Source: a bacterium CG10_46_32 | GTDB lineage: Bacteria; Patescibacteriota; Patescibacteriia; UBA2169 | Assembly: GCA_001889965.1 (NCBI GenBank) | Contig: MOEI01000012.1 | Coordinates: forward strand, 1,170-65,169 | Direction of reading: 5' to 3' | DNA length: 64,000 nucleotides | Part shown: in pieces, positions 11,656 to 22,150 of the stretch | Layout of the letters: each line of letters starts with the position of its first letter | Position numbering within the stretch: position 1 is the first letter of the stretch | Notes under the pieces: generated by a model | The model's input: only the letters and a program-made list of their open reading frames with translations | The model's database searches: none | What the model was told of the DNA's origin: nothing | Translations under genes and position numbers: made by a program

Positions 11656-12906
11656 TTAACTCCCCCCCACCTCCCTAAAAACCAAATCCATCTCCCCCAC
11701 CTCCGGATCTACCATAAAAGCTCTACGCGAGAATCCAGTCAAATTCAAAGTAGCGAGCGAACGCACACGAGAAAGCGCAACATATCCCATGCCATGGCCA
11801 AAGGTATTACCCAAATTAATCTCTGCAGTGTCTAATGTCATGCCCTGCGATTTATGAATGGTAATTGCCCAGGCTAACCTAAGAGGCACTTGGAATATAG
11901 AGGCAATAACAGAACTATCATGTTCCAAAGACCAGCTAGAAAACCCAACACTAATTCGCCTGCCGCTTTTTAATCTAACAACAGGGAGCAGTACACCTGC
12001 ATCATCATAAAAATCTACCACAACTCCCATGGTGCCGTTTACATAGCCATGTTCAAAATTATTTTTAGTAAACATCACCACAGCGCCAATCTTTAGCACT
12101 AACTCCTGTGGAATTTTGTTATACTCTTTTTTAAGTTGCAGAACCGCATCCCGCTTACCTTTGGAACGCATAGGATACACCTCTGCGTCTTGTTCTAGCT
12201 TTTCTAGCTCAAGCTCATTTACTGCATCTGCATCTTTGTTACGCGAAAATAATTTGGTTGTGTAGTTCTCTCCAGAAACAGGTTGCTTAAATCGCGATTG
12301 CAAAATCTCTTCTGTTTCGTAAGATGTTTTGCTCTGACGAATATCATTGAGTACTTGAGAGAATAAATCATCAGTATGCCTAAACTGCTCATCTAAATAA
12401 CAAACCCGCAGTTTTGCTTTGTTCCAGGATTCAGAGTGATACGCCAAAATCGGTTTTGTTTTATCGGTGCGAACCGGTGGCAGCTGAAAAAAATCACCGC
12501 ACAGAACAACTTGCAAACCACCAAAAGGTTGCGCGCTCCGCTTGACTGCTTTACATACCTCATCAACCAACTCTAAGGTACGCGCATCAACCATAGAAAT
12601 CTCATCAATAATCAAAACAGCGCATGCCAAAAACCTAGCTTGCATATGTTTGTTATCAGCAAGCTTTTGCAAATCACGGCCAGAGAGCTCCTCTTTTATA
12701 CCAATACCAGCCCACGAATGGAGGGTGGTGCCATCAATATGTGTTGCAGCAATACCCGTAGAGGCAGTTACTGCGTGCTTTTTGTTATTCTTTTTAAGGT
12801 ATTCAATAAACTCACGCAAAATATATGTCTTACCACTGCCGGCTGGGCCAGTGAGAAAAACATTGTTGCCTGATTTGAGTATGTTGAGCGCTTTTTTTTG
12901 GTCCAT
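11656..12906 (-). CDS. PIF1/RecD-like superfamily-1 DNA helicase
   Basis: Walker A LTGPAGSGKTY, IIDEISMV, GDFFQLPPV and C-terminal AITIHKSQGMT. Confidence 0.8.
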   Translation of the reverse strand: MDQKKALNILKSGNNVFLTGPAGSGKTYILREFIEYLKKNNKKHAVTASTGIAATHIDGTTLHSWAGIGIKEELSGRDLQKLADNKHMQARFLACAVLIIDEISMVDARTLELVDEVCKAVKRSAQPFGGLQVVLCGDFFQLPPVRTDKTKPILAYHSESWNKAKLRVCYLDEQFRHTDDLFSQVLNDIRQSKTSYETEEILQSRFKQPVSGENYTTKLFSRNKDADAVNELELEKLEQDAEVYPMRSKGKRDAVLQLKKEYNKIPQELVLKIGAVVMFTKNNFEHGYVNGTMGVVVDFYDDAGVLLPVVRLKSGRRISVGFSSWSLEHDSSVIASIFQVPLRLAWAITIHKSQGMTLDTAEINLGNTFGHGMGYVALSRVRSLATLNLTGFSRRAFMVDPEVGEMDLVFREVGGS

Positions 12907-12980
12907 GTGTATGTACGGTACGTTACTTACATTAAAAGAGCAATACAAAAAAACAACAGGCTACTTGAGTGAACCGTTGC

Positions 12981-13232
12981 CTAATACACTCCCTGCCGAT
13001 GCCCAAACTCAATCACCACAACCAATAGCTCGTTCTTATAAATCTTGTATACAATCCGGTATGGCCATACCCGAAAAGAATATTGCCCCTCGCGTTTTCC
13101 GTGAAGTTTTTTGCCCAAAAAAGGATTGGCTTCAATCTCGCCAAGAATTTGCAATACACGCATCTGGTACTGCTTTGGCAGTTTATGTATGTTTTTTTGC
13201 GCCCTTGGTTCTACGCGCAGTTTGAACACCAT
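12981..13232 (-). CDS. RelE/ParE-family type II toxin
   Basis: 83 aa: ...YSFRVWPYRIVYKIYKNELLVVVIEFGHRQGVY. Confidence 0.8.
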   Translation of the reverse strand: MVFKLRVEPRAQKNIHKLPKQYQMRVLQILGEIEANPFLGKKLHGKREGQYSFRVWPYRIVYKIYKNELLVVVIEFGHRQGVY

Positions 13233-13545
13233 ATTTTTTTGCAGATTTATCGGCTACAACAAAACCAAAATCTTTTTTAAGATCATCAAGCGTTGCCCAT
13301 TTTTTATACTCACCGCTTTTAACAGCCTTGTCAGTTTCGGCAACATGTTTATCTAAGTCTGGAAAATCTCGCAGCACCTCCAATGTTTCCGCCCAAGACT
13401 CAAATTCTTCGGCGGACATTAACACCGCCTTAGGACGGCCGTTTTCCGTGAGTGTGTAGTACCTACCCGGTTTTTGCACGTCACGAGTGATGGTAAAAAT
13501 ATCTTTACGCGCCTGGGTTGTAGAGATAGTATGTTGAGTATTCAT
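13183..13545 (-). CDS. Phd/YefM-family antitoxin with extended basic C-terminus
   Basis: ISTTQARKDIFTITRDVQKPGRYYTLTENGRPKAVLMSAEEFESWAETLEVL. It overlaps the toxin ORF by 50 nt. Confidence 0.8.
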   Translation of the reverse strand: MNTQHTISTTQARKDIFTITRDVQKPGRYYTLTENGRPKAVLMSAEEFESWAETLEVLRDFPDLDKHVAETDKAVKSGEYKKWATLDDLKKDFGFVVADKSAKKYGVQTARRTKGAKKHT

Positions 13546-13629: not shown

Positions 13630-13899
13630 TTAAAGCTTTACATCAATCGCGCCCTCTGCGCCTTCCCCTATCTTGGCATCGCGAAACTCATAGTCTGCAT
13701 CGCGGAGCAAGGCGCGCACCGCATCACCTAGAACCGGGCCTTCTTTAGAATGGATACCGCGGCCCACGATAATGCGGACTAGGTTGTATCCCGCGTGTTC
13801 GCTCTCGCTTAAAAAAGCACGCACAGCAGCGCGCGCTTGATGTTGAGTGTGCTGATGCAGATCCAAAGTTGCCTGCGGTGTTTGGGCGTATTTGTTCAT
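13630..13899 (-). CDS. Smr-domain protein
   Basis: TLDLHQHTQHQARAAVRAFL...RIIVGRGIHSKEGPVLGDAV. The ATG at 13899 is preferred over the TTG at 13905. Confidence 0.8.
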   Translation of the reverse strand: MNKYAQTPQATLDLHQHTQHQARAAVRAFLSESEHAGYNLVRIIVGRGIHSKEGPVLGDAVRALLRDADYEFRDAKIGEGAEGAIDVKL

Positions 13900-14082
13900 A
13901 CCCAAACTGTACGCTTCTCATTACTAAAAATCAACACAAGTCAGCCGCTATTCCAAATTAACCCATAAACTTAGAATAGTATTCCACTTTATGCAAAGTT
14001 AGGACATAAATCTTGAATATAAAAACAACCGGATTAACCAGCTGTTTTTATACTTCTTTAAAACGTACAATAAAGACGAAAT

Positions 14083-14346
14083 TTAGCACGCGGCAAAATC
14101 GTGCAAACGCCATGTGCTCCCTTTTTTCCTTGCTTCTACAACCCTGCCTCTTTGTGGATTAATATTTTCGGCAAGAGCGCGGCTTTCCTTATTGAAAGCT
14201 TCGTCGCCTTCTACGGTAATAATAACCCATCCCTTATTTGGAATTCTATTCATCAAATCAGGCTTCCTAATAATATATCTATCAAACTCATTAGACAGTT
14301 TGATATTCTTTTTTATAAATGTTTTAGACATACTGTTACGTTGCAT
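14083..14346 (-). CDS. hypothetical protein, possible partner of the upstream gene
   Basis: 87-aa ORF with an 11-nt overlap with the upstream ORF. No motif recognised with confidence. Confidence 0.4.
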   Translation of the reverse strand: MQRNSMSKTFIKKNIKLSNEFDRYIIRKPDLMNRIPNKGWVIITVEGDEAFNKESRALAENINPQRGRVVEARKKGSTWRLHDFAAC

Positions 14347-14641
14347 ATAAATAATTTTCTTTTATTTTTTCGTAGCGCTGTGCAATATCACTCTTCATAC
14401 TGTCGAAAGCTGATTGACTATCCATATATATAGGAAATTTATATTCTTTCCCATTTTTATGATACACATGCTTATGCGGGGTTCCATACCAATTGTCTAC
14501 CCCAAGCACTGTCCTCCATCTGGATTGTATGAGGGCACGATACCGGATCGAAAATTGAACCAACTTGCCTCCCTTGGTCTCAAAGCTTATATGTAAAACA
14601 TCTATATCAGTCAAAGGATACTTATACTCTTTCTTAGGCAT
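14336..14641 (-). CDS. hypothetical protein, possibly TumE/DUF6516-like
   Basis: The central ...VLGVDNWYGTPHKHVYH... resembles, from memory, the DN..PH.H core of DUF6516/TumE proteins. This is a weak call. Confidence 0.4.
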   Translation of the reverse strand: MPKKEYKYPLTDIDVLHISFETKGGKLVQFSIRYRALIQSRWRTVLGVDNWYGTPHKHVYHKNGKEYKFPIYMDSQSAFDSMKSDIAQRYEKIKENYLYAT

Positions 14642-14679: not shown

Positions 14680-14799
14680 TCATACAAATACGCGTTCGCT
14701 CCCACTCAAAAACGCGCGCACTGCGGCGCGCGCTTGATGTTGAGTGTGTTGGTGCAGATCCAATGTTGCCTGCGGTGTTTGCACTTGTTGGGCATACAT
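14680..14799 (-). pseudogene. duplicated 5' fragment of the smr gene (39 codons)
   Basis: MYAQQVQTPQATLDLHQHTQHQARAAVRAFLSGSERVFV* is near-identical to the first roughly 33 codons of smr (13899 downward). Confidence 0.65.
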
Positions 14800-14823
14800 T
14801 AGATGATGAGGAGAGCGGGTGAA

Positions 14824-14860
14824 TTAAAACTTTGTGAAACCACTAAACACGGAATAACTC
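14824..14860 (-). pseudogene. remnant 3' end of a small 3-TM cassette gene
   Basis: It encodes ..SYSVFSGFTKF*, matching the conserved C-terminal S.FTG[LF]* of the three intact small TM genes. Confidence 0.35.
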
Positions 14861-14908
14861 TCAATAAAGTACAATAAACAAATACCGGTGTTGCGTCAAC
14901 CATCTTCT

Positions 14909-15616
14909 TTATAAAAAACCGAACACTAGCATCATAATATTCAGAGCCAACAACACAAACACGATAACCCACATTGCTGCCAGAAAAAATTTATTCCAAA
15001 CCACTTTTTTTCTACGTAAAAACAAAAATATCAAATACCAAATTTCAAAAATAGATAGAGCGACAATACTGAATGCTGTTGAAAATTTTGCGATATAAAA
15101 CGAAGCGTCGTCGAACAACGCCATCATATAGCCCAGTCTTCGCGGAAACGCCAGACCGTCAAAAAGCATAATTACCGCAAATGATATAAGCAGTATCAAG
15201 GTAAGCCTCCGCCCGGAGTGACGATGTAGTTTCTGTATTCCGTTTTTAATAATTTCGCTTTTTCTTTTTTTCCTAAATTTTCTAATGACAATCGTTACAA
15301 CACAAGACAGCAGATACAAGTAGATAATCTCTATCGCCGCCATAATCCCAATCATCACACTCATCGGCCAGTCTAAATCGCCAAATACCATTTGCGGCAT
15401 GAGATAAATGAAATATGACGGAATAACTAATACCAGTCCTAGTACGCCAGCAATAAACGACGCAAAAGATACAGTGTCACAACCCAAGCTCATTATACAG
15501 CCGAACATAACCCCCATGATCAAAAAAATCGTTAGCGCGACCAAAACAACCAAAACTGCCATGACAATCAACTTCATCCGGGAAGGTTTAATAAATTTTA
15601 GTATTTTATCTTTCAT
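14909..15616 (-). CDS. polytopic membrane protein (235 aa), unknown function
   Basis: About 6 hydrophobic segments and a central basic loop RKFRKKRKSE. Confidence 0.55.
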   Translation of the reverse strand: MKDKILKFIKPSRMKLIVMAVLVVLVALTIFLIMGVMFGCIMSLGCDTVSFASFIAGVLGLVLVIPSYFIYLMPQMVFGDLDWPMSVMIGIMAAIEIIYLYLLSCVVTIVIRKFRKKRKSEIIKNGIQKLHRHSGRRLTLILLISFAVIMLFDGLAFPRRLGYMMALFDDASFYIAKFSTAFSIVALSIFEIWYLIFLFLRRKKVVWNKFFLAAMWVIVFVLLALNIMMLVFGFL

Positions 15617-15672
15617 TTTGAGTTAATGGAAATTCTGCGCCGCTTTTTAAAGCATCTTTTACATGTCTTGGT

Positions 15673-15987
15673 CTACAGCCCTGTATAGTTGCTCCAAAGA
15701 GAGAAAACTAGCAATGAATATAAAGAGTAAATTACTAATCCCAATCCTACAAGTATGAATATAGTTGATAATATCCTATTATGCTTAACTTTATATCGAA
15801 AACCTTGAATACCGCCTACAAATAAATAAACTCCAACCAAAATAGACAGAACAACAATAACATTAATAACAACTCCATTATCAGATACAAAATTTCTATC
15901 CTGAAAAATAAAAACAATCAATCGCGGTACAATAACAAACAAAAACAGTACTAATAAAATAGTATTTCTTTTAAATAAATTTCTCAT
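15673..15987 (-). CDS. small 3-TM protein, cassette partner 3
   Basis: 104 aa with three hydrophobic helices, ending SNYTGL. It starts 13 nt after the stop of orphan C-terminal cassette 3. Confidence 0.65.
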   Translation of the reverse strand: MRNLFKRNTILLVLFLFVIVPRLIVFIFQDRNFVSDNGVVINVIVVLSILVGVYLFVGGIQGFRYKVKHNRILSTIFILVGLGLVIYSLYSLLVFSLWSNYTGL

Positions 15988-16000
15988 ATGGTTCTATTTT

Positions 16001-16321
16001 TTAATAAACAAAACTTCTTAAAATATTCCAATCCAATGTAGAGTCGGGTAATCTGCCATAAACTTTGATAAAGCTGATTATACCCCGCTGTTCTGCGGAC
16101 ATATCTCTCACAGACGGCCGCAAGCCATATGCAATCATCATAACAGATTGATCGTTTTCTGCACCTGTGCTCTTTGCCTTTTGCTCGGCCTGCGCACTGC
16201 GGCGCGCGCTTGGTGTTGAGTGTGTTGATGCAGATCCAATGTTGCCTGCGGAGTTTGGGCGTATTTGTTGAGTATCAGGAAAGCTGGTCAAAAGATGAGG
16301 ATTAAAAACCCGTAAAGCCAC
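16001..16321 (-). CDS. orphan C-terminal half-domain cassette 3 (chimeric ORF: smr 5' fragment in an alternative frame + last repeat of the CT domain)
   Basis: The C-terminal 66 aa (RSAQAEQKAKSTGAENDQSVMMIAYGLRP...YGRLPDSTLDWNILRSFVY) are homologous to the ends of 16611-17063 and 17546-21217. The 5' part is smr-derived DNA (16190-16275). Confidence 0.5.
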   Translation of the reverse strand: MALRVFNPHLLTSFPDTQQIRPNSAGNIGSASTHSTPSARRSAQAEQKAKSTGAENDQSVMMIAYGLRPSVRDMSAEQRGIISFIKVYGRLPDSTLDWNILRSFVY

Positions 16322-16592
16322 TAAAAGCGAAGTAACCTAAAATAAAATAAATGAGAATGAGTGCAGGGGGAATGATAAATACTATTGAAACTTTTTGAGC
16401 ACTGTCTTTTAGTCGTATAGAAAATTTAACATTCATATAAACAAGATATACTGCCCCTAACAGCATAAAATAAATCAATGAATTTACATGTTTATCTGGC
16501 ATGCCTGGCTGATAAAAATTCTCATAAATAAACCAAGGTGACACAAGAAATATTATTATTAAAATAATATTTTTATAAACTAGTTTTTTCAT
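16302..16592 (-). CDS. small 3-TM protein, cassette partner 2
   Basis: 96 aa with three hydrophobic helices, ending SGFTGF. It starts 18 nt after the stop of orphan cassette 2. Confidence 0.65.
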   Translation of the reverse strand: MKKLVYKNIILIIIFLVSPWFIYENFYQPGMPDKHVNSLIYFMLLGAVYLVYMNVKFSIRLKDSAQKVSIVFIIPPALILIYFILGYFAFSGFTGF

Positions 16593-16610
16593 ATTTTTTA
16601 TTATATTCTT

Positions 16611-17063
16611 TTAATAAACAAAACTTCTTAAAATATTCCAATCGAATGTAAAGCTTGGTAATCTACCATAGGTTCTAACGAAATTCACGAGTCCTTTTTG
16701 CTCCAACCCCATATCTCGCTTTAGCGGCCGCAAGCCATATGCAATCATCATAACAGATTGATCGTTTTCTGCACCTGTGCTCTTTGCCTTTTGCTCGGCC
16801 TGCGCACTGCGCTGACTTGGTAGATTGTTGGTGGAAATTTGTATCACATCACTCCAATCAACAGTGCTTGTAGGTAATCTGCCGAACGCCTCCTTAAATG
16901 AGTACAATACTCCAGCGCGCTCGCCTTGTCCTAAAGCCTGCGTACTCTTGGTGCCATAGGCAATAAACGCTATTGCTCCCCGATCAAACGAGAGCCCTTT
17001 ACCATAACGCTCTGCTACTGCTTGCTCTAAAGCGCTGTCCCTCGCTCTATCTAAATACGCCAT
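16611..17063 (-). CDS. orphan C-terminal domain cassette 2 (5'-truncated copy of the large protein's C-terminal tandem-repeat domain)
   Basis: The 150 aa align with the last roughly 150 aa of the 1237-aa ORF. Homology (EDEILSALANADIETF) continues about 16 codons upstream of the first ATG in a frame that has no start codon. Confidence 0.6.
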   Translation of the reverse strand: MAYLDRARDSALEQAVAERYGKGLSFDRGAIAFIAYGTKSTQALGQGERAGVLYSFKEAFGRLPTSTVDWSDVIQISTNNLPSQRSAQAEQKAKSTGAENDQSVMMIAYGLRPLKRDMGLEQKGLVNFVRTYGRLPSFTFDWNILRSFVY

Positions 17064-17155
17064 GAATGTTTCGATATCTGCATTGGCAAGCGCGGATAAA
17101 ATTTCATCTTCTCTATGGATGCTTGCTGAATACGGGTTAAACGACGTAAATGGAA

Positions 17156-17230
17156 TTAGAAATCAGTAAAACCACTAAAAGCGAAGTATCCTAAAATAAA
17201 ATAAATGAGAATTAACACAGTAGGAATAAT
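17156..17230 (-). pseudogene. remnant 3' end of a cassette-partner-2-like small TM gene
   Basis: It encodes ..IPTVLILIYFILGYFAFSGFTDF* and is roughly 85% identical by eye to 16302-16380. Confidence 0.45.
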
Positions 17231-17236
17231 GTTGAA

Positions 17237-17533
17237 TTAGAGACCAGTAAAATTACTCAAAGCATAAATCATAACTAAAGCGTAAAGTGCGTACAACACC
17301 AACCCAAGACCCATAATAAAAAAAATAATTCGGCTCGTATTGCTCTCGAAATCAAAACGCTTTGCATTGATACGTACTAAATAAATTCCCGCCACCAGAA
17401 CAATAATAATCAAACCATATATAATTTTACTCCTAAGTTGAAAATCAAATATTCCAAATATGTACTTGTTAGCTAGATAAAGTACCACAACGAATAAGAC
17501 CGCGATTAAATTTTTATGTATCTTTTTTATCAT
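17237..17533 (-). CDS. small 3-TM protein, cassette partner 1
   Basis: 98 aa with three hydrophobic helices, ending SNFTGL. It starts 12 nt after the stop of the large protein. Confidence 0.65.
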   Translation of the reverse strand: MIKKIHKNLIAVLFVVVLYLANKYIFGIFDFQLRSKIIYGLIIIVLVAGIYLVRINAKRFDFESNTSRIIFFIMGLGLVLYALYALVMIYALSNFTGL

Positions 17534-17545
17534 AATCCAACTTAC

Positions 17546-20500
17546 TTAATAAACAAAACTTCTTAAAATATTCCAATCCAACGTAGAACATGGGAGCTTG
17601 CCGTAGATCTCAATAAATCGCTCTATCCCTTGTCGCTCGGCATCTAGATCCCGCTTATCCGGCCGCAGACCGTAGGCAACCGTTATAATAGATTTCTCAT
17701 CATTCATACCCACATCTTTTGCTTTTCGCTCGGCGGCACCGCTTCGCTGAATTGGCGCTTGGTTGGTTGCAATTCGAATCACGTCATTCCAGTCTTCGCT
17801 TGTTGTGGGGAGGATGCCAAATGCCGCTTTATAGGAATACAGTACTCCGGCGCGCTCTCCGGTTCCAAGTTTTTGCGTGCTCTTGGTGCCATATGTGATA
17901 AAGTTGATGCCTGCCTGGTTCAAGCGAAGTGATCGGCCGTATTTTTGAGCTGTTTCCTGCTCCGAAAAAAAATTCCGTTCCAAACTAAGATAATCCAATA
18001 ACGTTTCAATATCACCATCGTGGAGAGCAGCCAGAATATCATCTTGCGTATACTGCTCGCTCTGTGCACGCTCTATTTTTACGCCAAGCACTTCCGGAGT
18101 TGAGGCAGATCCTGAATCAAGTCCAGGATGACGATTTGGCTCTTGAGTATTCTCATCTTGCGATTTGCCGGCAGGCGCGGCAGGTGTCGGCACAATAATG
18201 ACAGCCGGAGAATAAACATTGATCGTTTGAGTGTGGTAATCTTCCAGATTCCCTACTCTGTCCTTTGACCGGTACAGTACTGTATTATCGCCTATAGTGG
18301 TAAGTATAACCTGATTTTCGTAAGCGTGCCACGTGCTCCCGTTATCAAGACTATATTCTGTTTTTAAAACTCCAGAATTATCATCACTTGCCAAAAGCTC
18401 AAACGCGGCGGAAGACGCTCCACCAGAAACACTGATAGTAGTGGTTGGTTTTGTTATGTCCCCAGCCTGTGTACTGTTGAGGACCGCTGCCGCAGTAACC
18501 GGCGCAAAACTTCCCGTACCATTCGTATCCACCTGTAACGTGGTTCCACTAACGTCCGATGACAACGCTACCTGTGCACTGGTTGATTGATTCACTGGAA
18601 CATCAGTGTAATACGCAGTTTCGATGACCTGGTTGTTCACAACCTTGGAAACATACAGGCTGAATGTACCACTTCCGGTGCCGTCATGTTGAATATTGTA
18701 AGATGTAGAATCCGTGTTCGGTATAAAGATAAATTTATTATCTCCAATCTGCTCATAGGTTGCGCCTGGGATATTCAATTCAATATCTCCATTTTCGTCT
18801 GGACCGACATGGTTGCCGTTTGCATCATACACGTTTAAATTGACCGGACTGTGCACAGATACGACCTGACCGTTGAATACACACTGGCTGATGTCTTGAG
18901 AAATATCCGGCAATGACGAAGTGTCTAGCGTGCCGGTGATGATCTCTGTAATTAACTGCTTAATACTTGACTGGCTCGGCATGGTTGCGTGTTCAACGCC
19001 AATTGCATAAAATGTTTTGTTTGCCTGTATATCAATAGCAGTCGCGCTATCCAACGGAACTGTTCCGTCGCCTGCTACAAACTCAACACCATATTCTACT
19101 TTAACAAGTTCCTGGTTCCGGATGATAATTTTGCCGAGAGTTGCAGTGTCGCACCCCACAATATTATAGGCATCCATTCCAGTAGTATTAAAATCGTCCA
19201 AAGCATTGCTATGAAGATCATCTGCGCTCTGAACAAGAGAAAAGTTTAAGCCCTGGTTGACCAGATAATTATTTACCTCGTCATAAGTGTGGCTTTTTGG
19301 AATAGCTAGATTATAAAAGTATTTTCCGATTTCAGATATATATAGACTACTAGGCAACAACTGGTAAACTGACGCCATATTCTTTGTGATGCTTTTTATT
19401 TCAAGTTGGTTCATTATTAGACCCATACCCAAATTATCACCATACAGTAATACCTTTGCTGATTTAGGTGACCCTAAATGTGGCGTACCGACAAAGATCA
19501 TTTTATTAACTCTCGACGAAGAATTATCAAGAATATATTGTTTCAAAACTAGACCACCCATACTATGGGCGACAATATCGACTTTCTGACTACCCGTCTG
19601 TTGTATAACACTATCAATCTTATCGACTAAAAATTGACTTATTGATTGAATATTCAAACGCCAATCATAAGGGAATAAAAATAAATCAGTATTCTCCTGA
19701 TACCCAGCAGACTCAAAATCATTAATCAAACCATCCAAGTAATCAAAAATAGTACCACCAAAAATTGATGCTTTCCTAAAAATATCATCAACATAAACAG
19801 AATTATCGCTTGGAGACCCATCTTCATTCATAGACAAAGGATCCATATAGGATTCGGCGACCGAAATTGCCGTCCAAAGAAAATTTGGCCATAAAGTAAT
19901 ATCTCCTAAACCACCAAAAACTTCCTGCTTCAAAATCGTCCCGGCTATCCCCGGCACCAGAATAACAGGTACATTACGCACCTCAAACATTAACTCCCCA
20001 GACGATGGCAAGCGGACAGCAGACAACCCATCCGAAGTCTCAAAGTGGTAGGAATAGGAACCCTTAGGGAACACGCCGGCATTTGGAGTAAACTCAAACA
20101 GGCCATTGGACGACGTTGCCATAGGATACGCGCTATTGCCAACCACCAAGCGAACATACTGCGCAGAATCGCCATCAGAATCAGTAAATAAAATGCGGAA
20201 CACCGGAACATCCTGCCCTACAAAACTAATATCAGGCGATGCGCCATCAGCAGTATACCCATCCAAATCTTGGTACGATAAAACCGGCGCTTGGTTGGCG
20301 GGATCTTGGTTTGTCCAGGGGCTATAGGTTACATTCCCCACAATCACATCCCCGGTTCCAGAAGGATTGGACGCAATGGTCGGGCCGGAAGAACTGCCCC
20401 ACCAATTGTTCGTCATATCCAACGGGTCGTCGCCGGAGTAGAAAACCGCACTTTCTGAATTATCGTAAAAACTGGAACCTACAATAGACACGTGCGCTGG

Positions 20501-21217
20501 CACTACCGCGCCGCCGACGGCCAGCATGCCAATTTTATTGCCATAGAACAGCGTATCAACTACCGTCGTAAATGCGTCATTCTGTAATCGAAAGCCGGTT
20601 TGGGCGTTATCCCGAACCACAGAGTCCGCGATTGAAATAGTACTGCCAGTTGTGATGTTTTTGATACCCTCCCACACACTCTGTTCAATCACTGAGTGGT
20701 TCAGCGTAACTTCGCCGCCGGTTACCAACAGCATGGGCCAATTTGACTTGCCTCCATACCGGATAATGACATACTCTGCGTCCAACCTACCACTGACTGA
20801 CATCCGAAACCAATCCCCAGGAGAAGGCAGGGTCTCATTGCCGTCACTATTAGTATCTCCGCCGTACTCGTCGTCTTTTATGGAAGTGAACACCACTGGA
20901 GCAGATTCAATTCCGGCAATAATGAGCGTGCCGTCAATAAAAATCTGGAACTGCAATCCGGTCGGCATCTTGATAACTACCCCGGGTTCAATAGTAACCG
21001 TTGTATTAGCTGCCACTTTGATGGTTGTTGTCTGCGCGATATAGGGGCTGTTTGCGGCAGTGAGCGTGTATCCGTCTGGAAACGTATTATTCGGAAACGC
21101 AAGCGTGGTAGCTGCATGCGCGGGCGCAACCCACGCCAACGCGCACACAAAAAACACAGCAACAAAAATAATACTGTGCTGGATTGGTTTGATGATGTCT
21201 ATACTATGTCCCTCCAT
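17546..21217 (-). CDS. large secreted multidomain protein: signal peptide, right-handed beta-helix, LCAT/PGAP1-like alpha/beta-hydrolase (lipase), Ig-like domains, C-terminal tandem-repeat domain
   Basis: The signal peptide IIFVAVFFVCALAWVAPAHA follows the ATG at 21217. Beta-helix-type repeats follow. Lipase motifs are VILVPGIAGT, FPYDWRL and IVAHSMGG (GxSxG). An OmpL47-like segment (DDNSGVLKTEYSLDNGSTW) follows. The C-terminus has two repeats of about 45 aa with YG..ER.G....F...[FY]G.LP....DW. Confidence 0.85.
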   Translation of the reverse strand: MEGHSIDIIKPIQHSIIFVAVFFVCALAWVAPAHAATTLAFPNNTFPDGYTLTAANSPYIAQTTTIKVAANTTVTIEPGVVIKMPTGLQFQIFIDGTLIIAGIESAPVVFTSIKDDEYGGDTNSDGNETLPSPGDWFRMSVSGRLDAEYVIIRYGGKSNWPMLLVTGGEVTLNHSVIEQSVWEGIKNITTGSTISIADSVVRDNAQTGFRLQNDAFTTVVDTLFYGNKIGMLAVGGAVVPAHVSIVGSSFYDNSESAVFYSGDDPLDMTNNWWGSSSGPTIASNPSGTGDVIVGNVTYSPWTNQDPANQAPVLSYQDLDGYTADGASPDISFVGQDVPVFRILFTDSDGDSAQYVRLVVGNSAYPMATSSNGLFEFTPNAGVFPKGSYSYHFETSDGLSAVRLPSSGELMFEVRNVPVILVPGIAGTILKQEVFGGLGDITLWPNFLWTAISVAESYMDPLSMNEDGSPSDNSVYVDDIFRKASIFGGTIFDYLDGLINDFESAGYQENTDLFLFPYDWRLNIQSISQFLVDKIDSVIQQTGSQKVDIVAHSMGGLVLKQYILDNSSSRVNKMIFVGTPHLGSPKSAKVLLYGDNLGMGLIMNQLEIKSITKNMASVYQLLPSSLYISEIGKYFYNLAIPKSHTYDEVNNYLVNQGLNFSLVQSADDLHSNALDDFNTTGMDAYNIVGCDTATLGKIIIRNQELVKVEYGVEFVAGDGTVPLDSATAIDIQANKTFYAIGVEHATMPSQSSIKQLITEIITGTLDTSSLPDISQDISQCVFNGQVVSVHSPVNLNVYDANGNHVGPDENGDIELNIPGATYEQIGDNKFIFIPNTDSTSYNIQHDGTGSGTFSLYVSKVVNNQVIETAYYTDVPVNQSTSAQVALSSDVSGTTLQVDTNGTGSFAPVTAAAVLNSTQAGDITKPTTTISVSGGASSAAFELLASDDNSGVLKTEYSLDNGSTWHAYENQVILTTIGDNTVLYRSKDRVGNLEDYHTQTINVYSPAVIIVPTPAAPAGKSQDENTQEPNRHPGLDSGSASTPEVLGVKIERAQSEQYTQDDILAALHDGDIETLLDYLSLERNFFSEQETAQKYGRSLRLNQAGINFITYGTKSTQKLGTGERAGVLYSYKAAFGILPTTSEDWNDVIRIATNQAPIQRSGAAERKAKDVGMNDEKSIITVAYGLRPDKRDLDAERQGIERFIEIYGKLPCSTLDWNILRSFVY

Positions 21218-21337: not shown

Positions 21338-22150
21338 CTACCCCTCTGCATCCTCGCTTGATGCAACTCCAGACCACAGTACCAATTCATCTTCGACAAG
21401 CTGGCCGTAGTAGGGCTGGTGTGGCATATCCGGCACTACACTGAACAAGTAGCTACCCTCGCTACCGGAAACCGTCACGCAACCCCACATATCAGGACCA
21501 GGCGTGGCATCGTGAAAGATGATGTCCATCGGATCCACGTGTTCCTGCTCTATGATGGCAAGGACAATGGGTATACTGTCCTCCCACTGGTACCTGTTGC
21601 CAGCTGCAACCTTAGCAAACAAGCACGTGCCGTGATCCAGGAATGTATAGAGTGCAAAACTACAGTCATCATGCAAGTTGGAAGATGCGGGATCTTGATA
21701 CGCAACCTCACGAAACTCAATTGGCCGAGTAGAACCCTTGGAAACTTTGAGCTCCTCTTGTGCGCTGATCTTTTTGAGTAATCCCGCGAATGCCTCCTGA
21801 ATACGCAAGCTACACCGTTCCCACGTGAATCCAGAAACCACGAACGGCGTTTCTTCGTCCACATCGCAGTACACAGTGAGCATGCGGTACCACGATTCAT
21901 CTGGCGTGATTGTTTCGTGCACACGCCGCGTGCATAGTTCAAAAAACACCGTCTCGGAAACATCGAGCCCCTCAACTTGAGCGAGATTTTCCACCACAAT
22001 GGTGGGGTCGTATGAATTCTCCATCCAGCACTCAAGCACATACACACACTCGCCTCCCTGTGCAACATACCAACCGCTGCCCATTACTTCAACACAATAG
22101 TCAGGGCTTTCTGCGGCAAGTATCGTAAAATACTTTGGCCAGCCTTCCAT
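21338..22150 (-). CDS. acidic cytoplasmic hypothetical protein (270 aa)
   Basis: Strong SD (AAGGAGGG) 6 nt upstream of the ATG, and its own terminator. No recognisable motif. It is visibly GC-richer than the neighbouring array. Confidence 0.6.
   Translation of the reverse strand: MEGWPKYFTILAAESPDYCVEVMGSGWYVAQGGECVYVLECWMENSYDPTIVVENLAQVEGLDVSETVFFELCTRRVHETITPDESWYRMLTVYCDVDEETPFVVSGFTWERCSLRIQEAFAGLLKKISAQEELKVSKGSTRPIEFREVAYQDPASSNLHDDCSFALYTFLDHGTCLFAKVAAGNRYQWEDSIPIVLAIIEQEHVDPMDIIFHDATPGPDMWGCVTVSGSEGSYLFSVVPDMPHQPYYGQLVEDELVLWSGVASSEDAEG

Follow-up and report, generated by a model that had tools for sequence, protein, structure and literature searches.

Why should the gene for a giant secreted lipase be followed by truncated copies of its own C-terminal domain, each with a small membrane-protein gene behind it? 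The question is raised by a locus of bacterium CG10_46_32, a member of the Patescibacteria (candidate phyla radiation, CPR), that lies in a 64,000-nucleotide (nt) stretch of GenBank contig MOEI01000012.1 (positions 1,170 to 65,169 of the forward strand; hereafter the window). Our comparison of this array with related loci indicates that the C-terminal domain (CT) is a generic module of CPR surface proteins and that the gene for the adjoining three-helix transmembrane (TM) protein, not the CT, is the polymorphic element. The explanation that we favor, with moderate confidence, is a recombination hotspot at the 3′ end of the lipase/TM operon, at which the truncated CTs persist as relics of homology arms and the TM gene is exchanged as a cassette under selection. 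The array comprises the following elements (window coordinates):

17546..21217, minus strand: main gene, 1223 amino acids (aa), open reading frame (ORF) 21217→17546, Sec-type signal peptide
17549..18061, minus strand: CT1, C-terminal ~170 aa of the main protein (CT profile match 17549–18034, E 6e-60)
17237..17533, minus strand: TM1, 98 aa, three-TM protein, type B (ORF; TM profile)
17155..17230, minus strand: 3′ remnant of a canonical-type TM gene, 24 codons and stop, IIPTVLILIYFILGYFAFSGFTDF (TM profile 17159–17230, E 1e-6)
16611..17153, minus strand: orphan CT2, a nearly full CT (CT profile match 16614–17096, E 4e-58)
16302..16592, minus strand: TM2, 96 aa, three-TM protein, canonical type (ORF; TM profile)
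~16192..16257, minus strand: 5′-end fragment of an Smr gene, NKYAQTPQATLDLHQHTQHQARAAV, joined to CT3 (DNA repeat; translation)
16001..16201, minus strand: CT3, last ~63 codons of a CT (CT profile match 16004–16183, E 2e-20)
15673..15987, minus strand: TM3, 104 aa, three-TM protein, type B (ORF; TM profile)
14909..15616, minus strand: 235-aa ORF with about six TM segments, accompanying TM3 (ORF; hydrophobicity)
16725..16811 (in CT2) and 16115–16201 (in CT3): exact 87-nt direct repeat, copies 610 bp apart

The lipase gene and its downstream array

The ORFs confirm the coordinates, minus-strand orientation, and spacings that an initial annotation, made from the sequence alone, had given for the main gene, the CT copies, and the TM genes. 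In particular, a CT profile run over the 64-kb window gives exactly three matches, a TM profile recovers all three TM genes (E 4e-21 to 2e-39) together with two 3′ remnants, and the DNA-level repeats in the window agree with both sets of matches. The main protein ends in ...DWNILRSFVY; TM1 starts 12 nt past its stop codon in the same frame, TM2 begins 18 nt after the end of CT2, and TM3 begins 13 nt after the end of CT3. Orphan CT2 is 5′-truncated, as the annotation had proposed: its ORF runs from a first ATG at 17063 to 16611 and lacks a signal peptide, the reading frame extends unbroken from 17153 but offers no start codon above that ATG, and its homology to the main CT already begins 5′ of the ATG. 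The three TM proteins, which had seemed only weakly similar by eye, share 27–38% identity, score 5.7–10.8 standard deviations over shuffled sequences, and each have three hydrophobic helices, and are true paralogs. From the main gene downward, the order is main gene with CT1 and TM1, a TM remnant, CT2 and TM2, the Smr fragment fused to CT3 with TM3 and the 235-aa ORF, a second TM remnant with a second Smr fragment, an inserted gene pair, and the intact Smr gene. The array genes were deposited as hypothetical proteins BK004_01925–01955, the main gene being BK004_01955. No terminator-like site was found from the main stop codon through to the 235-aa ORF; a GC-rich hairpin followed by a T-run at 14714–14733, within the second Smr fragment (14691–14781), could be the end of the transcript.

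The main protein comprises a Sec signal peptide, a right-handed beta-helix, a lecithin:cholesterol acyltransferase (LCAT)/phospholipase-A2-type alpha/beta-hydrolase, an OmpL47-type beta-barrel domain, and the CT. Specifically, residues 494–630 match Pfam LCAT PF02450 (E 1e-24, 87.8 bits against a cut-off of 21), residues 935–1001 match NCBIfam barrel_OmpL47 (E 1.7e-15), Pfam Beta_helix matches as well, and the PDB sequence matches include LCAT and group XV phospholipase A2. The protein is therefore predicted to belong to the LCAT/phospholipase-A2-type alpha/beta-hydrolase lipases. Its 90%-identity cluster has a single member. The protein gives no Pfam match to PT, VENN, Rhs, or HINT domains, and no delivery apparatus (CdiB, type VI or type VII secretion system, and the like) is present among the neighboring genes over the ~10 kb examined on each side.

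An assembly artefact or chance resemblance is already refuted for practical purposes. The repeat shared by CT2 and CT3 does disturb short-read assemblies, three metagenome contigs stopping inside it. Two contigs (L003 and L004), however, cross the whole array at 100% identity to the window, which excludes an artefact of one sample's assembly; the six independently assembled contigs L003–L008 match the window at 100% identity in every overlap; the profile E-values reach 1e-60; and unrelated samples and lineages show the same architecture.

The C-terminal domain and the membrane-protein slot

An exhaustive profile search was needed to reveal the extent of the CT family, a single-sequence, word-indexed search having returned only two CT relatives. 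The family comprises 1183 representative 50%-identity clusters at E ≤ 1e-3 (977 at E ≤ 1e-10), with source records in Patescibacteria/CPR genomes, and a scan of viral contigs found no relative. The match lies nearly always at the extreme C-terminus, in host proteins of 150–3508 aa, and the passenger domains of ten sampled members are subtilase, surface Ig-like, cadherin-like, cohesin, dockerin, fn3, and beta-helix domains. The family size, C-terminal position, and passenger domains indicate that the CT is a generic, lineage-wide surface-protein module and not a toxin tip, and its position and passengers suggest a role in retention at the cell envelope. The toxin-like module proposed initially also fits poorly with the sequence conservation: CT identity among orthologs and orphans is 46–69%, CT1 and CT2 share 52–54%, CT3 and the matching part of CT2 share 78%, and orphan CT2 retains all 19 of the 19 family-invariant residues.

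The AlphaFold2 model of CT1 (predicted local distance difference test score (pLDDT) 96.8, predicted template-modeling score 0.90, 31-sequence alignment) is all-alpha, with ten helices, as in the two-repeat fold that marks the family, and CT1, CT2, and CT3 all match the family profile. Fold searches found no solved structural relative, and there is no sign of a toxin fold or activity. The identification with a known cell-wall or S-layer binding module, which the annotation had named as the result that would overturn its proposal, finds no support: among SLH, LysM, CWB, PG_binding, and PMBR, Pfam gives only a sub-threshold PMBR match (E 0.21), and no structure of such a module is among the best fold-search matches listed. 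The annotation recognized neither family; Pfam, NCBIfam, PHROGs, and PADLOC contain no model for the CT or the TM family. One family member, the 686-aa cohesin-domain protein P0031, carries nine tandem ~45-aa helix-loop-helix units of the pattern ..FG.LP...DW......AY.. found in the CT, so the CT is built from a repeat that is able to form long arrays.

The majority of family members terminate in ...IAYSGA[TK]R, within the family pattern ...DW.I.RAIAYSGA[TK]R; CT1, ending in ...VY, lacks this tail, and the lipase subfamily forms a tail-less sub-branch. To compare CT–TM arrangements we used orthologous lipase loci from species-representative genomes (L009–L013), 80 loci from metagenomes, and three loci found via their TM proteins (L017, L020, and L023). 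Wherever a tail-less CT (...DWN[IV][LF]R..[IV]Y) had room downstream, which was so in about 40 loci, the next ORF encodes a three-TM protein of 93–115 aa, at a spacing of −11 to +25 nt (+41 and +97 in two loci), and most related genomes carry one such CT–TM pair. A CT subtype ending in ...LSYSNINK is followed by a 121–123-aa four-TM ORF, and none of about 30 SGATR-type CTs examined has a small three-TM neighbor. Five loci with a general-family CT (L014, L083, L088, L091, and L098) have an ORF of 172–190 aa with four hydrophobic segments at +64 to +129 nt, possibly another kind of membrane protein associated with the CT; in four of them (CT tails ...AYSGV[SG][LF] or ...GGIDI) this ORF ends in REKKA... 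or EKKAA..., while L014 has a similar ORF size and similar hydrophobic segments but an SGATR tail and another ORF end. The records of two of the loci compared (L009 and L012) are titled "uncultured Gammaproteobacteria bacterium" and hold a CPR-type lipase/CT/TM locus; the bins are probably mislabeled or contaminated.

The 43 distinct CT–TM pairs fall into at least five TM classes, and TM class is not predicted by the adjacent CT. In particular, identity over the last 60 CT residues and TM identity correlate with r = 0.21 (Mantel r 0.04 for the adjacent CT), one CT end (AYGLRPIVRD.EKEKQGLKEF.KIY.RVP.STFDWNILR.ISY) stands beside four TM classes (in L033, L056, L040, and L035), and the "NPIPFGI" TM class stands beside unrelated CT ends. 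The cognate CT–TM pairing suggested by the initial annotation is therefore not borne out. Comparison of close relatives shows what occurs instead. Upstream, L049 and L042 agree at 98.5% over 956 nt; their identity is 93.8% from a point 10 nt ahead of the TM stop codon onward, and the ~220-nt TM core between those flanks is unalignable; L040 and L035 show the same pattern of conserved flanks and replaced core. In these alignments the TM gene behaves as a cassette that is replaced between conserved flanks.

The main protein is a mosaic as well, and TM similarity does correlate with another part of it, the two-thirds comprising the beta-helix and lipase (Mantel r 0.41–0.50, p 2e-4, for 14–20 sequences with no independent species marker). 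Along the N-terminal 850 residues the Mantel value is 0.2–0.46; for the block comprising the OmpL47-like domain and the CT, which is internally linked (r 0.88), it is ~0. The correlation is suggestive either of a C-terminal block exchanged against a shared background or of a functional coupling between TM protein and enzyme.

Searches of Pfam, NCBIfam, and PADLOC gave no above-threshold match for the TM proteins, the best match being the holin family phrog_1527 (E 0.002, TM3 only). TM1 has the sequence GLGLVLYALYAL...SNFTGL, and TM2 follows the pattern MKKL.YKNI...LPW...IPP...FSGFTGF. The AlphaFold2 model of TM2 (pLDDT 84.7) has helices at residues 2–26, 33–60, and 64–90, so that only a loop and a tail, each of ~6 residues, protrude from the bilayer; the C-terminal aromatic-Gly-hydrophobic tail is conserved among the TM proteins and is predicted to face outward. 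A division into two TM types by C-terminal motif was revised by alignment, which places TM2 and every TM protein of orthologous loci in a canonical type and TM1 and TM3 in a divergent one. A contig from another sample (L106, equivalent to window 16656–14658) differs from the window at one base in 1999, a change of Ser to Arg within the TM2 C-terminal motif (FSGFTGF to FRGFTGF).

TM3 has an ortholog in the relative L017, with 68% identity and a ratio of nonsynonymous to synonymous substitution rates (dN/dS) of 0.275, which shows purifying selection. L017 shares the order TM3 ortholog, 234-aa ORF, Smr, with just a ~25-nt degenerate CT end upstream; dN/dS for the 235-aa ORF and its 234-aa ortholog is 0.26, and that for Pif1 is similar. 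Since the TM3 value is near those of neighboring housekeeping genes, the orphan TM genes are maintained genes. The 235-aa ORF matches no family in Pfam and the other libraries searched, and the idea that it is a fusion of two TM units was rejected for lack of significant similarity.

Recombination at the 3′ end of the operon

About eight other lineages also have orphan modules, in which a 5′-truncated CT with its 3′ end preserved precedes a small TM gene. In L026 and L001 the order is lipase, TM112, orphan CT P0001, TM96; L055, L056, L036, L060, and L017/L084 each carry an additional CT piece and TM gene; L033 has a CT remnant past the TM gene, cut by the contig end; and L023 has a second TM gene further downstream without an additional CT piece. 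The orphan CTs are truncated at profile positions 12–18, 83, 139, 139, 160, 178, or 179, always keeping the 3′ end. The formal parallel to the orphan arrays of CdiA-CT/CdiI and Rhs-CT that the annotation had drawn thus extends from the window to these lineages. In most related genomes, though, there is one CT–TM pair only, which counts against the annotation's proposal.

The downstream part of the array adds four elements:

14824..14883, minus strand: second TM 3′ remnant, ...YFIESYSVFSGFTKF (DNA repeat; translation; TM profile 14827–14883, E 2e-3)
14691..14781, minus strand: second Smr 5′ fragment (88% nt identity to the intact Smr gene)
14083–14641, minus strand: DUF7718 (101 aa)/DUF5647 (87 aa) gene pair, ends overlapping (Pfam DUF7718 7e-13, DUF5647 6e-15)
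13630..13905, minus strand: intact Smr-domain gene (Pfam Smr 2e-15)

The array retains scars of its assembly. It holds two copies of the first ~25–35 Smr codons (14691–14781 and ~16192–16257), and the latter joins CT3 directly at a microhomology of 10 nt, GCGCACTGCG, inside a GC-rich palindrome of the Smr 5′ region; this joint is as expected for tandem duplication of a segment running from mid-CT through a TM gene to the Smr 5′ end. The Smr fragments and the microhomology joint mark the CT copies as products of duplication and replacement. The TM remnants are canonical TM genes with overwritten 5′ parts, one overwritten by CT1–TM1 and the other by TM3 and the 235-aa ORF; the remnant at 17155..17230 retains 84% nt identity to the TM2 3′ end. 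The CT copies are mosaic: CT2 and CT3 are identical over 87 nt, then fall to 44–56%, with 14 of 27 residues differing around helix 9, and are nearly identical again over the last 10 codons. Likewise, the main and orphan CTs of L056 are 96–100% identical over the first ~200 nt and 33–60% identical after, and their TM classes differ. These mosaic CTs point to gene conversion, and the remnants, joints, and mosaics together therefore imply at least two duplications and at least two replacements at the window locus.

The palindrome at the Smr 5′ end, GCGCGCGCCGCAGTGCGCGC (regions 13794–13884, 14691–14781, and 16192–16257), is the site at which the fragment copies met foreign sequence and may be a preferred breakpoint for illegitimate recombination. 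The DUF7718/DUF5647 pair, which separates the second Smr 5′ fragment from the intact Smr gene, looks like an inserted two-gene module, possibly of toxin–antitoxin type, whose insertion would have duplicated the Smr 5′ end.

Under the explanation that we favor, the array terminates a conserved Patescibacteria operon that consists of the gene for a Sec-secreted beta-helix/LCAT-type lipase and, closely coupled behind it, the gene for a three-helix membrane protein. The conserved ...DWNILRS.VY coding sequence, the MKKLIYKN start of the TM gene, and its ...F[ST]G[FL] end would serve as homology arms that flank a TM core exchanged among lineages, and tandem duplication with illegitimate joining at microhomology would add units of a CT 3′ piece and a TM gene. 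The truncated CT copies would most likely be untranslated, hitch-hiking homology arms, and the accompanying TM genes would be intact and selected. The TM protein is probably the lipase's membrane partner, acting to shield the membrane of the producing cell or to hold the enzyme in position, and the diversity of the TM slot is probably selected rather than neutral.

Several observations weigh against this explanation. CT2 is as far from CT1 (54%) as are the orthologs of other species, yet its ~180-codon frame is open and its invariant residues are kept; such lack of decay is unexpected for an old, unselected relic and requires either recent acquisition or gene conversion, or a selected role. 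Several orphan CTs of other lineages are nearly full length (P0001 and that of L056). The TM protein tracks the beta-helix and lipase, not the adjacent CT, and a coupling of this sort could be immunity-like. Finally, the envelope-retention role of the CT is deduced from position and passengers.

An effector–immunity system could account for that coupling: the surface lipase, with or without its CT, would attack the membranes of neighboring cells, the TM protein would confer immunity, and the orphan TM genes would form an immunity repertoire like those of CDI, Rhs, and type VI secretion lipase loci. Small polytopic membrane proteins do serve as immunity proteins against membrane-acting toxins, for example pore-forming colicins and the CdiA-CT of E. 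coli EC93, and the recurrence of orphan arrays across lineages, the high polymorphism of a TM slot swapped among close relatives, the intactness of displaced TM genes next to truncated CT pieces, and the purifying selection on TM3 are all as such a system would have them. We nevertheless judge it unlikely, as neither a pre-toxin motif nor delivery machinery is found in the protein or within about 10 kb, the Sec signal of the lipase is ordinary, the domain adjoining the immunity-like gene is a conserved, generic CT in place of a variable toxin tip, most genomes have a single pair, and the immunity families of PADLOC and Pfam give no match; moreover, the correlation of TM with lipase is no stronger than that with the N-terminal beta-helix and may reflect shared background only. 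A broader variant, which we regard as possible but doubtful, is a Patescibacteria-specific polymorphic surface system in which a host- or competitor-directed lipase has its C-terminal block and TM partner shuffled, displaced TM genes serve as a compatibility or immunity repertoire, and the CT family is a new lineage-wide envelope-targeting domain whose lost tail is replaced by the TM partner.

The strict link between loss of the SGATR tail and an adjoining small TM gene, the tight coupling of the two genes (10–25 nt apart), and the conserved TM tail, with its predicted outward orientation, could also mean that the tail-less CT is an anchor module docking on the adjacent TM protein as its cognate receptor, with matched alleles. 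This is improbable given the lack of CT–TM covariation, by correlation and by Mantel test alike, and the presence of near-identical CT ends beside four unrelated TM classes and of one TM class beside differing CT ends; in addition, the TM2 model exposes little surface for allele-specific recognition, and TM3 and its L017 ortholog persist without a functional CT upstream. Programmed switching of the antigenic-variation type, in which silent truncated CTs would convert the helix-9 patch of the expressed gene, is less probable still. Such switching is consistent with 5′-truncated silent copies, a variable patch between conserved flanks, and the signs of gene conversion between copies, and two short contigs from other samples (L107 and L108) could be its product: they equal the window minus exactly 610 bp between the 87-nt repeats, which yields a CT2–CT3 chimera of 150 aa followed by TM3 and removes TM2. 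These contigs represent either a real recombination allele or a low-coverage repeat collapse, and their use as proof of cassette loss was rejected, as assemblers could collapse an exact 87-nt repeat at low coverage. Apart from this one possible deletion allele the contigs are identical to the window, and hence give no sign of the programmed cassette switching envisaged initially; specifically, variation of the expressed main gene within the population was absent from L003–L008 (two of which span the whole array) and from the single-member cluster, short-read contigs being a weak test, no recombinant main gene is recorded, donor copies number just two, and no dedicated recombinase is adjacent.

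The genes around the array, over the ~10 kb examined on each side, include DHH, CCA-adding enzyme, Smr, Phd/ParE, Pif1, and CSD genes. Just downstream of the array lie a Phd/YefM–ParE toxin–antitoxin pair (12981–13545, minus strand) and a Pif1-family helicase gene (11656–12948, minus strand); in the relative L017 the Pif1 gene is on the opposite side of the TM3/Smr block, so close relatives differ in the gene order of this neighborhood. A 270-aa acidic ORF (21338–22150, minus strand) with no Pfam match immediately precedes the lipase gene and adjoins it in every contig of this organism. Further away, a 658-aa ORF (27242–29218, minus strand) combines Pfam RVT_1 (reverse transcriptase) and DNA_pol3_delta_C, an unusual pairing.

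Relation to known systems and significance

One close parallel is with the CdiA-CT/CdiI and Rhs-CT/RhsI arrays of polymorphic toxin systems. As in them, a large secreted protein is followed by 5′-truncated C-terminal copies, each comprising the 3′ end and a small gene, with mosaics conserved upstream and diverged downstream (clearest in L056) and with replacement of the small gene between close relatives. In contrast to them, the locus has a generic, conserved C-terminal domain that does not resemble a toxin, no VENN/PT-type motif and no Rhs, CdiB, type VI, or type VII component was found, the small genes mostly encode paralogous three-TM proteins that do not covary with the CT, and what varies is the TM gene and, as a separate unit, a ~370-aa C-terminal block, not a toxin tip. 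Of the hallmarks of those arrays, the modules of truncated CT and small gene are thus present here; a toxin tip or pre-toxin motif, a toxin fold, matched immunity, and delivery were not found.

Other systems share single features with the locus. Like the SLH, cell-wall-binding repeat, LysM, and GW modules of Gram-positive bacteria, the CT is a repeat-built C-terminal module on many unrelated secreted enzymes and adhesins; unlike them, it is CPR-restricted, has no sequence or fold similarity to them, and includes a subfamily that lost its tail and gained an adjoining membrane-protein gene. The TM proteins resemble colicin immunity proteins, CdiI of E. coli EC93, and class II bacteriocin immunity proteins in having ~100 aa, three TM helices, and minimal loops, in being encoded directly downstream of a secreted-protein gene, and in being highly diverse between strains, but no homology was detected and the adjoining domain of the partner is hydrophilic and no pore former. 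As in pilE/pilS and vlsE, an expressed gene has truncated copies without promoters nearby, and these bear traces of gene conversion; unlike in those systems, there are one or two copies only, no variation of the expressed gene is seen within the population, and intact downstream genes are carried along. Replacement of a 3′ end with accumulation of orphans is a dynamic of a known kind. The combination of a conserved, generic CT with a variable, tiny TM partner in CPR bacteria is new as far as the searched libraries and literature show, and we found no relevant literature on CPR lipases or CPR polymorphic toxins.

The Patescibacteria (CPR) represent a large fraction of bacterial diversity; their cells live attached to those of a host and lack the ability to synthesize lipids. 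To our knowledge, almost nothing has been established about how CPR surface enzymes are positioned or controlled. The CT family is a very common, unnamed C-terminal domain that probably sets where CPR cells keep their secreted proteins, and the giant surface lipase is always accompanied by a tiny membrane protein in the about 40 loci. The cassette replacement, orphan accumulation, and gene conversion are clear population-genetic indications that the small TM protein or the adjoining C-terminal block is under unusual evolutionary pressure. Should the TM proteins prove to shield against the lipase or to direct it, the locus would be the first effector–partner system of its type described in CPR bacteria; should it in fact belong to a polymorphic surface system, that system would be a new one of effector/self-protection or kin discrimination among episymbiotic members of the CPR.

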